Assembly (NCBI GenBank): GCA_963728565.1
Contig: CAVSLC010000003.1
Location: 64,001-128,000 of the forward strand
Direction: 5' to 3'
Source: an uncultured delta proteobacterium
GTDB lineage: Bacteria > Desulfobacterota > Binatia > UBA9968
Length of the DNA: 64,000 nt
Part shown: piece by piece, positions 59,131-63,658 of the stretch
How the letters are laid out: every line of letters begins with the position of its first letter
Position numbering within the stretch: the stretch's first letter is position 1
Made by a program: the position numbers and the translations under genes
The notes under the pieces: generated by a model
Told to the model about the DNA's origin: nothing
Databases searched by the model: none
What the model saw: only the letters and a program-made list of their open reading frames with translations

Positions 59131-60030
59131 TTAAATGACCTTATTGAGTGGGTATTCGATAATGCCCACGGCGCCGTTGCGTATCAGAAGCGGAATCAAA
59201 TCCCTGACTTTGGCTTCTTCGAGCACGCTCTCCACCGAGAACCATCTGATCCCTTTCAGGCTCGGAGAAGGATGAAGTGTGGCGACCGTTGGCGCCGTGA
59301 TGCTCGGAATCAGCTGTATGACCTTTTCCAGGTCGGCTTCGGCGACATTCAGCTTGATGCCGACCTTGTTTTCCGCCGAAAGCGCTCCCAGCAGTAGAAG
59401 TCGGATTTGCTCAATCTTCTCCTTCTTCCAAGGGTCCTGCCATGCGTCCTGGTTGGCGATCAGTTGGGGACAGGATTCCATTAGCTCATGGATAATCCTC
59501 AGCCCATGAGCGCGGATCGTGCTACCGGTCTCGGTCACTTCAACGATGGCGTCGACCAGACCTTCGGCAGCCTTGGCCTCGGTGGCGCCCCAGGAGAATT
59601 CGACTTCGACGGGGATTTCTCTTTCGGCAAAATAGCGCTTCGTATAGTTCACCATTTCCGAGGAAATTCGCTTACCCCGAAGGTCTTCTATCCTTTCAAT
59701 CGGTGAATCCTGCGGCACAGCCAGCACCCAGCGAGTTGGGCGAAAGCTGGTCTTCGAATAGATCATCTCGCAGACGAGCTGGACATCGGAACCGTTCTCC
59801 ATGACCCAATCTCTGCCGGTGATGGCGACATCCAGAGTGCCGGACTCGACGTAACGTGACATTTCCTGGGGACGCGCCAGGCTACAGCGCAAAGTCTCAT
59901 CATCGATGGAGGGGAAATAACTGCGGCTCGTCGTCGAAATTTTCCAGCCGGATTTTCTGAAGAGCTCGATGGTCATTTCCTCGAGGCTCCCCTTCGGTAT
60001 TCCCAGCTTCAGTTCTTTGCCGGCCTTCAT
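59131..60030 (-). CDS. hisG: ATP phosphoribosyltransferase, long form
   Basis: [34 protein letters not shown]-terminal regulatory domain ending EYPLNKVI. Confidence 0.95.
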
Positions 60031-60067
60031 GAGCCGCGGGCCTCTATAATGAACAGTTGAAGCGGGC

Positions 60068-60451
60068 TCATAATGATTTTTTGTAAACCTCTTTCGGATC
60101 AAAAACCCGTTCGGCGCAAATTTCCCAGTGGTCGCCGGAGCGCTGGCGAAAGAAGCAACTTCGAAATCCTTCATGGCAAGCGGCGCCGCCGATCTGATTG
60201 ACCTGCAGCAAAATCGTGTCATTGTCGCAGTCGATGAAAGCATCTCTTACTTCTTGGAAGTTGCCCGACTCCTCGCCTTTGAACCAAAGCCCCTTGCGGG
60301 AACGGCTGTAATAATGCGCTTTGCCGGTCTTTTGTGTTTGCTCCCACGCCTCTTCGTTCATATAAGCAACCATCAACACGTCGCGCGATTCGTAGTCCTG
60401 CACGATCACGGGAATCAAGCCGTCAGCCTTGGCGAAGTCTATCTTTTCCAT
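60068..60451 (-). CDS. hisI: Phosphoribosyl-AMP cyclohydrolase (monofunctional)
   Basis: [32 protein letters not shown]. Confidence 0.95.
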
Positions 60452-60508: not shown

Positions 60509-61250
60509 TCAGCCGGGCCTGGCATTATCAACAGGACTACGAGTCGCCGCGGCGATTTTGAGTATCGGAATCGTCTTGATCTTCTCCGTGGCCGAGCCTC
60601 CGCCAGTAAATCCCTTCAGGCCGCGGGAAATTCGCATCGATTTCGATAATCTCGCCCGGCGTAACGATAGCGCTGAGCGGGATGTCGTGTTCGGCCATCG
60701 GCAGGTCTTCGTCGACGATTTGCAACGGGTGAACCGAGGTGACGATCGGCGTCTTTGCGGAAATCTTTTTGTTCTCGGTCAGCAAGGCGAATTCCAAGTC
60801 CGAATAGCCGCCGCCTTTACCGACCCGAGCGCCGCGGCGATTGACCGCGACCGAGCCGCAGATGATCAGGTCAATTTTTTTGATTTCATCCAGCCCGATC
60901 AACCTGCCGAACTTTGCCGCACCCTGAATTGTAGACGCGGTGTAAGGGGAACAATTTAGTTTCGCTGGATCGAGCTCGATAAATGGTTTCTGATTGCGCA
61001 GGCGCGGCACCGCCATATAGACGATTTTGCCATCGGCAAGAGCTTTGTGCCGAATCGCTCTTTGCGGTGAGTCCGGATTGGATTTCAAAGCTATGGCGCG
61101 CTTCCAGTATGGTTTTTCGGCGAGCAGGCGCGCGCAGACTTCGGCGCCAATAAAGTTGGGTATTCTTCCTTGGGCGCCGGGAAAGCGCGCCACTTTCTCA
61201 CGCTGCATCATCGACCAAACTTTCTGTCGGATCTGCTCTTTTGTTCGCAT
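60509..61250 (-). CDS. 5-formyltetrahydrofolate cyclo-ligase paralog (COG0212 'RIPNF' type), probable frameshift near 60592
   Basis: GRIPNFIGA, NPDSPQ, AVPRL, GSVAV, GKGGGYSDLE; the expected C-terminus (EKIKTIPIL) is in a shifted frame; ORF-track stop is 60537. Confidence 0.85.
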
Positions 61251-61352
61251 CACAATAAATTATTCCTGCCTTCGATAGATGACAAGCGAGCATAGAGTCA
61301 TCACGGGAAATCGGTGCGATTGCGCTCACTGTCACACTTGCGGATTAGCGGA

Positions 61353-61382
61353 TTGACTGGGTGTGAAAGGCGGTTGTAAGAT
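61353..61382 (+). promoter_or_regulatory. Putative sigma70 promoter giving a near-leaderless cutA-nudix mRNA
   Basis: TTGACT-18 bp-TAAGAT, ATG 8 nt after the -10 box, no SD. Confidence 0.45.
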
Positions 61383-61390
61383 CGATATTA

Positions 61391-62236
61391 ATGCAAGAGT
61401 TCATCGTCGTCTATGTGACCGCTGGATCGGCCGACGAGGCGGATCGGTTGGCCCGTTCGCTGGTTGACGAGCGGCTTGCGGCTTGCGTCAATCGCATCAA
61501 GTCGGTGCAGTCGGTTTATCGATGGCAGGGCAAAGTAGAGCAGAGCGAAGAAGAGCTGTTGATTATCAAAACGAGCCGGGACCGGTTCGCGGTTCTGGAG
61601 AAACGCGTTCGAGAACTTCACAGTTACTCAGTTCCAGAAGTGATCGCATTGCCAGTGATCGAAGGCAGCAGCGGCTATCTGAAATGGCTCAAGGAGCAGG
61701 TTACTTCCGGGCCGCGGCCCCGCGGCGATGGCATACGAACAGTCCGCGAAGTTTCGGCCGGCGGCGTGATGTACCGCAAGCACAGCGATGAGATTCAAAT
61801 CGCCTTGATTCACGTGCGCAATCGATGGGGCCTGCCTAAAGGTCATGTTGAAGAAGGCGAGCGCATCGAAGAAACCGCTTTGCGCGAAGTGCGAGAGGAG
61901 ACTGGATTAGAAGGTCGCGTGGTAAGAAAAGTCGGCGATATCCGCTACGCCTATCGTGATAAAACCAAGGAAGGCGAGCCGATCCGCATCTATAAACGGG
62001 TTCATTTTTATTTATTGCGTTACCTGAAGGGCGATGTTCGTGATCATGATCACGAAGTTGACGAGGCGCGCTGGTTTCCCATGGACCAGGTGATCAAAAA
62101 CTTAAAGTTCGCCAGCGAACGAAAAATGGTTCATCGGGCGCTGAGCATCCTGACGGCAAGTGACAATCAGCGGGTCAAGCAGGCGCCCGAACGGCAATCC
62201 GAAGATGAACCGGTTGAGCAAAAGCTCCCCCGCTAA
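61391..62236 (+). CDS. CutA-Nudix hydrolase fusion protein
   Basis: aa 1-103 CutA ([31 protein letters not shown]); aa ~120-255 Nudix ([32 protein letters not shown]). Confidence 0.85.
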
Positions 62237-62277: not shown

Positions 62278-63658
62278 ATGGTCATGAGTGATCGAGCTGT
62301 CGGCGTTACGTTTTCGGTGCCGTACGAGATCGCTGCGGTTCGTCGGTTACGGCAGACCAGCCTGCAGGAGCGTGAACACGCGCTCCAGGCCTGCGGCTAT
62401 AACTGTGAGCTGCTGCCCCAGGACGCAATCTATATCGATCTCTGCACCGATAGCGGCGTGAGCGCATTGAGCACGGCCCAGATTGCTGCCGGGAGTGGGA
62501 TCGAGGCGGTGGAGCCGGCAATGGGCATGGCGACAGAAGCCAGCCGAGCATTTGCTTCTCTGTCAGCGCAGTACCGCGAAGTTTTTTGGGTTTCCCTACT
62601 TAGTTCCGGCCATCCAGGGACGCGCCGCTGAACGCATATGGGCAAAGATTCATGTCAAGCCTGGTACTGTGGTGCCCGGCAATATGCTGTTTCCGTCGAC
62701 GCGCATGCATATCGAAGCCAACGGCGGCAAGGTGATCGATGTCATAGCCGATGGCGCCCACGATCTCCAATCAGAAGATCCCTTCAAAGGAGATCTCGAC
62801 ATCGAAAAACTTGCCGCGCTTTTTCGCGAGCACGGACGGCAAAAGGTCAGCTGCATCTATGTCGAGCTTAGCGTTAACGCTTGCGGCGGCCATCCGGTCT
62901 CTCTCGGCAATCTCAAGAAGGTCAAGGCGCTGGCCGCAACGAACGGTGTGCCGCTGTTTCTCGATGCCTGCCGGATTCTCGAGAATAGCTATTTGATCCG
63001 GCAACGCGAGGCCGGATATCATGATCGTTCCATTCGCGAAATCGTTTTTGAAACGTGTGAATCGGCAGACGGTTGCACGATGAGCGCCATGAAAGATCTG
63101 CTGGTTCCGATGGGCGGCATGATCGGCAGCCGCGATCCCGTCACCTTCCAAAAGGCGACCCTGCAAAGTTTTCTCGATGGCGCGCAGCTCCCGGCAAGCG
63201 CAATGCAAATGATCAGCACCGCGCTTGACGAGATCTTGGCCGAGGATGCCTATGTGACCAGCCGGGTGGAGCAGGTTAACTATCTTTGGCGCAGGCTCAG
63301 AGAGACAGTCCCAGTGGTGCATCCGCCCGCCGGTCACGCCGTGTATATCGACCTGGCCGCGTTTTTGCCGCACGTGGCTGCGGAGAATCATCGCGCCGAG
63401 GCTCTAGCCGCGTTTCTTTATTGCGTTTCCGGCGTTCGGGTGACCAAAGGCGCGCCACCGGCGCCGGCCCAAACCGCGCGCGGGGTGGAGCTACTTCGGC
63501 TGGCAGTGCCGGCGCGTAAGTACGTTCAGGGGCATATCGATGACGTCGCCGAAGCCGTGTTGTATGCGTATGCCCACCGCCACGAAATTAGAGGATTGAA
63601 GCAGGTCGATGATCCTCAAAGAGCCAAATACCAGCCTTGTCACTTTGAGCCATTATGA
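62278..63658 (+). CDS. Divergent tryptophanase/tyrosine phenol-lyase family PLP enzyme, split by a +1 frameshift in the T6 run 62582-62587
   Basis: YIDLCTDSG, QGRAAE, VNACGGHPVS, LDACR, MSAMKD (PLP Lys), GHAVYID, LLRLAVP; removing one T joins ORFs 62278 and 62483. Confidence 0.85.

Follow-up and report, generated by a model that had tools for sequence, protein, structure and literature searches.

We analyzed a 64,000-nt stretch of contig CAVSLC010000003.1 (assembly GCA_963728565.1), hereafter the window, from the metagenome-assembled genome (MAG) of an uncultured delta proteobacterium of the Binatia, a soil bacterium. Its forward strand carries, at 61391..62236, one ATG-started open reading frame (ORF) of 281 amino acids plus stop, in which a CutA1 domain and a Nudix hydrolase domain are joined by a short linker and followed by a C-terminal tail (Table 1). 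Both domains were well above the Pfam gathering cut-offs, the CutA1 profile being covered from position 1 to 98 of 99 at 127.9 bits (cut-off 22.4) and the NUDIX profile scoring 82.9 bits (cut-off 21.1). Together with direct reading of the Nudix box, these matches uphold a preliminary description of the locus, made without database searches, as a complete CutA, a short linker and a Nudix domain with intact box, all in one ORF. Alignment of 25 fused proteins (alignment A1) further revealed a linker whose sequence varies while its length hardly changes. An AlphaFold2 monomer predicted from these 25 sequences (mean predicted local distance difference test score, pLDDT, of 68; predicted template modeling score, pTM, of 0.46) contains the expected secondary structure in both domains, with pLDDT values below 50 in the linker (residues 108-114) and the tail (261-281).

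An alternative to a real fusion is an artefact, in which an indel of one base in this particular MAG would have merged two separate genes. The preliminary description had cautioned that the assembly has other indels and that the linker contains an out-of-frame ATG that would be read if one base were missing. The first remark holds, as the neighboring tryptophanase-like gene, next downstream, does carry an extra G near 62578 with respect to a congener. The ATG is also there (61729-61731), but congeners, listed relatives and independent contigs all speak against a missing base. Indeed, a comparison of 41 related genomes found the full-length frame open in the source genome (G000) and in five of its seven congeners (G001, G004-G007; 86-98% identity), and the same uninterrupted frame in two further genera (G023 and G014), with the loci confirmed by translation. 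A search of a collection of 5.8 billion proteins retrieved 2467 at E <= 0.001, and both PF03091 and PF00293 are present in all 120 relatives among the matches listed (266-320 amino acids, 69-97% identity), which come from many sources. Over 61700-61760, assembled Logan contigs of three independent studies span the linker with no gaps, the only indels listed in them (61342 and 61385) lying upstream of the ATG. Moreover, of 35 substitution sites listed within the ORF, 28 are third codon positions of a single frame, a signature of purifying selection on one frame across both domains; the three sites just after the linker (61741, 61744 and 61753) are all third positions. The X15 contigs, from an RNA library, span 61628-61792 and 61828-61988; they derive from a related strain and may contain DNA, and are no proof of transcription. 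The nudix start codon is, in addition, gone from the fused forms, as detailed below. With the same frame in five congeners, in every listed protein and in indel-free contigs of three studies, an artefact becomes a near-negligible prospect: the fusion is genuine.

Table 1. Features of the cutA-nudix locus and its surroundings in the window, with the contigs that bridge the linker.
Feature	Position	Strand	Remarks
CutA1 domain	61403..61696	+	residues 5-102; PF03091 E 1.4e-37
Linker	61697..61732	+	residues 103-114, 12 residues; holds the cutA stop codon in split relatives
Codon ATA (Ile115)	61733..61735	+	site of the nudix ATG (MRTVRE...) in split relatives
Nudix hydrolase domain	61751..62125	+	residues 121-245; PF00293 E 2.7e-23
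Nudix box G151-L173	61841..61909	+	includes E170, counterpart of the catalytic E51 of aq_158
C-terminal tail	62150..62233	+	residues 254-281; probably disordered; poorly conserved in alignment A1
Sigma-70-like promoter match, weak (TTGACT, 18 nt, TAAGAT)	61353..61382	+	upstream of the ORF
5-formyltetrahydrofolate cyclo-ligase family gene	60537-61253	-	divergent from cutA-nudix; PF01812 E 8.7e-27
hisG overlapping hisI	59131-60451	-	from the ORF list
Tryptophanase / tyrosine phenol-lyase-like gene	62278-63658	+	split into two overlapping ORFs
Linker-spanning contig, X1 record 4	61350-61760		
Linker-spanning contig, X3 record 10	61598-61914		
Linker-spanning contig, X15 record 7	61628-61792		

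Within the same order (families f1 and f2), cutA and nudix lie adjacent and nearly abutting on the same strand. We scored 44 non-redundant loci, which comprise 20 fused, 8 split in-frame and 16 split out-of-frame arrangements; this count omits the duplicates L002, L004, L005, L007, L012, L093 and L096, as well as L010 (an unpublished genome) and L107 (cutA without nudix), and the unpublished genomes G012 and G018, both with in-frame split forms, enter no count or claim. In the in-frame split form, the cutA stop is followed by four or five codons and then by the nudix ATG, as in ...GEQLSGSTA-stop-PGDA-MRTVRETSAGG. The fused forms have a sense codon in place of the stop, and their former ATG reads ATA, ATC or ATT (Ile), GTA, GTT or GTG (Val), CTT (Leu) or ACT (Thr). 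With the stop lost and the internal ATG decayed, the Nudix domain can no longer be translated on its own and is produced only within the fusion.

We then reconstructed a maximum-likelihood tree on the CutA plus Nudix regions (an alignment of 44 rows by 253 columns) with the f2 rows as root. Eighteen fused rows, including the window, formed one starred clade (99/94), while two more (L009 and L029) grouped next to three split, out-of-frame rows that make up a clade, such that the fused state needs at least two changes on this tree; the starred branches alone would permit one. In-frame split forms flank the fused assemblage as its closest outgroups, and every f2 row at the root is split, in what is a gene tree of the same genes with an outgroup that is not cleanly monophyletic (one row is misplaced). 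The events likely followed the order, with this polarity, of an out-of-frame pair, an in-frame pair, loss of the stop and decay of the internal start. Separate genes with a stop in the linker, which the preliminary description took as the sign that would overturn a fusion, do exist in more distant genera. However, since the tree places the split state as ancestral and the fused state as derived and stable in a clade of 18 species, the split relatives explain the fusion rather than refute it.

The CutA domain found its best solved match in CutA1 of Thermus thermophilus (1nza, E 1.2e-27) and shares 38% identity with Escherichia coli CutA (PDB 1NAQ) over 97 residues without gaps. In common with stand-alone CutA1 proteins, it displays the AAC, Y-x-W and H-x-Y-x-x-P-E motifs and two of the three pocket glutamates. 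E. coli E61 and E90 are conserved as E54 and E83, both invariant in alignments A1 and A2, whereas E59 is replaced by S52, with E53 alongside. It further departs from the stand-alone proteins in having its C-terminus joined to an enzyme. Of the residues that we take to form the E. coli His2Cys copper site (C16/H83/H84), only H84 has a counterpart, H77. The domain did not reach the NCBIfam CutA1 equivalog NF041095 (103.1 bits vs a cut-off of 120), and the fusion is the single PF03091 match in G000, a genome that is 80.6% complete. CutA1 proteins adopt a PII-like fold with ligand-binding clefts between subunits and, to our knowledge, all solved CutA proteins are trimers or multiples of trimers. 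CutA is conserved in every domain of life, and what it does is still disputed: copper tolerance, the carriage of small molecules and, from 2025 on, the binding of pteridines have been put forward (PMC12685090). The same paper reports that CutA binds pteridines, tetrahydrobiopterin among them, and then has a higher affinity for copper, that lumazines bind likewise, and that the cleft mutant E59A/E61A/E90A poorly complements a cutA deletion (PMC12685090).

Direct reading of the Nudix box (G151-HVEEG-E157-RIEETAL-R165E166-V-R-E169E170-T-G172-L173) evidenced its fit to the GX5EX7REUXEEXGU consensus, and the box is invariant in the 25 fused proteins of alignment A1. The SAGGV...WGLPKGH motifs named in the preliminary description are present as well. 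The best solved match of the domain is 3i7u, the Aquifex diadenosine tetraphosphate (Ap4A) hydrolase aq_158, at E 3.9e-24 and end to end (domain residues 5-139 vs chain 3-128). Next come mycobacterial MutT1 (9CXX, E 5.6e-13; 5GG5, E 2.2e-11) and weaker matches to CT771 of Chlamydia (9.9e-11), Ndx1 of Thermus (5.5e-10) and the animal Ap4A hydrolases (1kt9, 5.5e-07; NUDT2, 3u53, 2e-06), a ranking that bears out the likeness to Ndx1 and asymmetric Ap4A hydrolases noted in the preliminary description. The window domain shares with aq_158 (PDB 3I7U/3I7V) an N-terminal strand bearing SAGG, a W-x-x-PKG motif and, besides the Nudix box, the catalytic Glu, E170 aligning with aq_158 E51; it differs from this stand-alone 15.8 kDa protein in an insertion of ~5 residues and the N-terminal CutA. 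As described in PMC13145063, aq_158 is an Ap4A/Ap5A/Ap6A hydrolase, renamed 'Omnivore RNA pyrophosphatase', that strips tri- and diphosphates, m7G, NAD, FAD, Np4 and sugar caps from RNA in vitro, and its E51A mutant is inactive. MutT1, an 8-oxo-(d)GTP phosphatase, is of the same Nudix subtype and likewise resides within a two-domain protein, but its partner is a C-terminal histidine-phosphatase domain and not CutA. No such second domain was found in the window protein with Pfam or NCBIfam, and the MutT1 equivalog NF052459, the best NCBIfam Nudix model, was matched with 75.6 bits vs 475 and only over profile positions 3-125 of 292. The models of NudB (dihydroneopterin triphosphate diphosphatase, NF006961) and RppH (RNA pyrophosphohydrolase, NF001937 and related models) stayed at 21 bits vs a cut-off of 103 and 29.8 bits vs 139, respectively. 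As judged from these alignments, the closest relatives of the domain are the characterized dinucleoside polyphosphate (ApnA) hydrolases of the aq_158, Ndx1 and NUDT2 type.

An exhaustive search of 50%-identity representatives uncovered a protein, P0260 (250 amino acids), with the same two Pfam domains in the opposite order, Nudix at residues 6-126 and CutA1 at 147-243. Among the 120 relatives listed for P0260, six contain both domains (P0260 and P0271-P0275; 243-255 amino acids, 37-49% identity to P0260), and the other 114 are Nudix only. Alignment of the six showed that the Nudix box and the CutA motifs are kept and that the Nudix domain is of the SAGG...WSLPKGH type. This reversed family resembles the window protein in its two Pfam domains and its Nudix subtype, here joined in one polypeptide of ~250 amino acids, and differs from it in domain order, phylum and gene neighborhood, the domains being 29-31% identical. 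The ESM Atlas holds two separate clusters made up entirely of CutA1 plus NUDIX proteins, one of 51 members in which Candidatus (Ca.) Binatota is commonest and one of 66 in which Ca. Margulisiibacteriota is commonest, taxon labels that rest on 11 members per cluster. The reversed form is encoded at five metagenome loci (L108-L112), and the two with flanks (L108 and L110) have neither pterin or folate genes nor a common theme in their neighborhoods. Comparison of the two families indicates that CutA and this Nudix subtype have been fused at least twice, in both orders, the reversed form being an independent event.

At L110 (4213-5741), the reversed fusion overlaps the end of a gene for a MazG nucleotide pyrophosphohydrolase, which would place two 'house-cleaning' pyrophosphatases in one probable operon. 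Other candidate fusions were discarded: P0126, P0127, P0145 and P0171 are frameshift-garbled copies of the window's family, whereas P0130 is CutA-CutA and P0234 is Nudix-Nudix. P0130 (321 amino acids), with tandem CutA1 domains after a hydrophobic N-terminal region, is another unusual CutA architecture.

We consider it probable that the window encodes a genuine, vertically inherited fusion in which a CutA1 domain, a flexible tether of ~12 residues, a catalytically intact Nudix domain of the aq_158/Ap4A-hydrolase/MutT1-N type and a disordered tail make up a cytoplasmic, trimeric and functionally coupled protein. Because CutA1 proteins are trimers with intersubunit clefts, the CutA domain would assemble a trimer displaying three Nudix domains on their tethers. 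The Nudix domain would cleave a nucleoside-diphosphate-linked substrate, by analogy with aq_158 most likely an ApnA, an (oxidized) nucleoside triphosphate or the protecting group of an RNA 5' end. Coupling of the two activities may take the form of CutA clefts that bind small molecules and tune or supply the hydrolase, or of plain oligomerization by CutA. We infer a functional link because adjacency is kept across two families, the fused clade is stable and the reversed fusion arose independently. The Rosetta-stone value that the preliminary description saw in the fusion is thereby reinforced, as the same two genes are separate and adjacent in sister lineages and fused oppositely in a second lineage. 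CutA may regulate the Nudix domain, for instance as the ligand- or metal-sensing trimer that the preliminary description proposed; it may equally act as a binder of substrate or product, or as a plain oligomerization scaffold. A complex prediction with three CutA and one Nudix chains scored 0.00 in both runs, for which no controls were folded, and has no bearing either way.

Several observations weigh against such a coupled protein. Trimerization, interdomain contact and allostery were seen in no model here, the AlphaFold2 monomer being too weak to read domain packing. The substrate of the Nudix domain is not readable from its sequence, which fell far short of every NCBIfam equivalog cut-off for Nudix enzymes, MutT included. 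Two congeners, G002 (96% complete) and G003 (95%), both fragmented, yielded no CutA1 match, and the gene may therefore be dispensable. Furthermore, in two collection scans, of each of which the best 80 hits were considered, the association proved narrow. Among the best 80 loci in genome_contigs, 26 hold the cutA-nudix pair, all from this lineage and 16 of them fused (species-level loci), whereas the other 54 have no CutA match up to 3 kb on each side; their Nudix homologues are 35-51% identical and belong to Nitrospirota, Acidobacteriota, Actinomycetota, Chloroflexota and others. Likewise, a sample of 150 genomes of the phylum from outside the order was searched at E <= 1e-15 and gave matches in 104 of the 151 genomes searched (G000 counted); in 17 sampled genomes CutA and a close Nudix match occur together, never side by side, the distance being ~17 kb in G042 and G088 and ~740 kb in G079, with separate contigs in the other 14. 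The CutA-Nudix link is hence restricted to two lineages, and the coupling is not general. Finally, 8 of the 24 split loci are in the same frame, exactly as many as expected by chance, and selection thus did not favor a shared frame; readthrough of the in-frame stop forms was set aside on the same ground.

The main rival explanation is a neutral fusion of co-transcribed neighbors with unrelated jobs, in which loss of the stop was tolerated thanks to a floppy linker that leaves both domains free to work on their own, CutA being neither a regulator of the hydrolase nor its source of substrate. One point mutation sufficed from the pre-existing in-frame arrangement, the linker is variable and modeled at low confidence, and the tree permits a reversion or a second event (at least two changes); the absence of adjacency in the 17 phylum genomes with both genes, and of cutA from the 54 nearest Nudix loci of other phyla, fits equally. 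On the other hand, adjacency was retained across two families, the fused state is kept without exception in the starred 18-species clade, and an unrelated lineage independently joined a Nudix domain of this subtype to CutA, with the order reversed. Since it is unlikely that neutral accidents would twice have united the same pair of families, this recurrence weighs against a neutral origin, which we regard as possible though clearly the less favored account. Less probable still is a pteridine-linked enzyme, that is, a Nudix domain acting on a pterin- or flavin-related nucleotide (such as dihydroneopterin triphosphate, FAD, or a molybdopterin or pterin dinucleotide) with CutA clefts that capture the product or give feedback. 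The binding of pteridines to CutA and the resulting rise in copper affinity (PMC12685090), the conserved pocket glutamates E54 and E83, the removal of FAD caps by aq_158 in vitro (PMC13145063) and a cyclo-ligase family gene (5-formyltetrahydrofolate type) that diverges upstream and adjoins cutA in 31 of 37 close loci would all suit it. However, that neighbor lies below the TIGR02727 equivalog cut-off (42.8 vs 84.9) and adjoins cutA in only 3 of 15 more distant loci, such that the neighborhood looks like inherited synteny. The NudB score, the replacement of E. coli E59 by S52 and the two flanked reversed-fusion loci devoid of pterin and folate genes, one of them directly after a MazG gene, argue in the same direction.

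Beyond the coupled, trimeric fusion that we favor, a more specific proposal would be that the two independent fusions reflect one small molecule shared by CutA and this Nudix subtype, with cleft occupancy gating the three tethered hydrolases. The clefts would then bind the non-nucleotide moiety or the product, candidates being a pterin- or flavin-linked nucleotide, dihydroneopterin triphosphate or an ApnA alarmone. We hold this to be a long shot; were it true, CutA would for the first time have a defined partner enzyme and a place in a physiological pathway.

We came across no account of a CutA-Nudix fusion in the open-access main texts searched, and the words 'Nudix', 'fusion' and 'operon' do not occur in the 2025 CutA paper (PMC12685090). 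Such proteins are already in databases under generic names, 'uncharacterized protein involved in tolerance to divalent cations/ADP-ribose pyrophosphatase YjhB' at JGI and 'divalent cation tolerance protein CutA' at NCBI. A figure legend in PMC8469502 depicts, for Fusobacterium nucleatum, a PII-like COG3323 protein fused to a COG4111 NUDIX hydrolase. As in the window, a PII-like module is joined there to a Nudix hydrolase, but, by that legend's description, the families differ, the former being DUF34/NIF3-related and not CutA1, and the latter COG4111 and not of the Ap4A type. A fusion that has arisen twice, in both orders and with one Nudix subtype, is a concrete though modest lead to the role of CutA: it names a partner enzyme and makes CutA function testable by assay, with natural split and fused variants available for comparison. 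The locus also displays gene fusion step by step, from out-of-frame pair to in-frame pair, stop loss and start decay.

The closely related genomes behind loci L013-L037, which carry this gene, form one tight gene clade, yet their NCBI labels span at least five phyla or classes (Deltaproteobacteria, Ca. Binatia, Verrucomicrobiia, Chloroflexota/Limnocylindrales and Thermodesulfobacteriota), and Syntrophobacter also occurs among the 26 pair loci; the NCBI labels of these MAGs are thus unreliable.

Around the fusion gene, a scan for promoters and terminators remained at chance level, and the sigma-70-like match upstream of the ORF was not significant (1 found vs 0.6 from shuffles). The divergent cyclo-ligase family gene is of possible interest since CutA binds pteridines. 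Downstream, the tryptophanase / tyrosine phenol-lyase-like gene (Beta_elim_lyase; NF009709, 322 bits) is interrupted at the extra G mentioned above, whereas the ORF is intact at 457 amino acids in the congener L013; the break reflects an error of assembly or else recent pseudogenization. Further upstream, hisG, of the long form with a PII-like HisG_C domain, overlaps hisI. Its ORF of 370 amino acids has an N-terminal extension of ~120 amino acids ahead of the HisG domain, and the listed start is therefore probably too far upstream.

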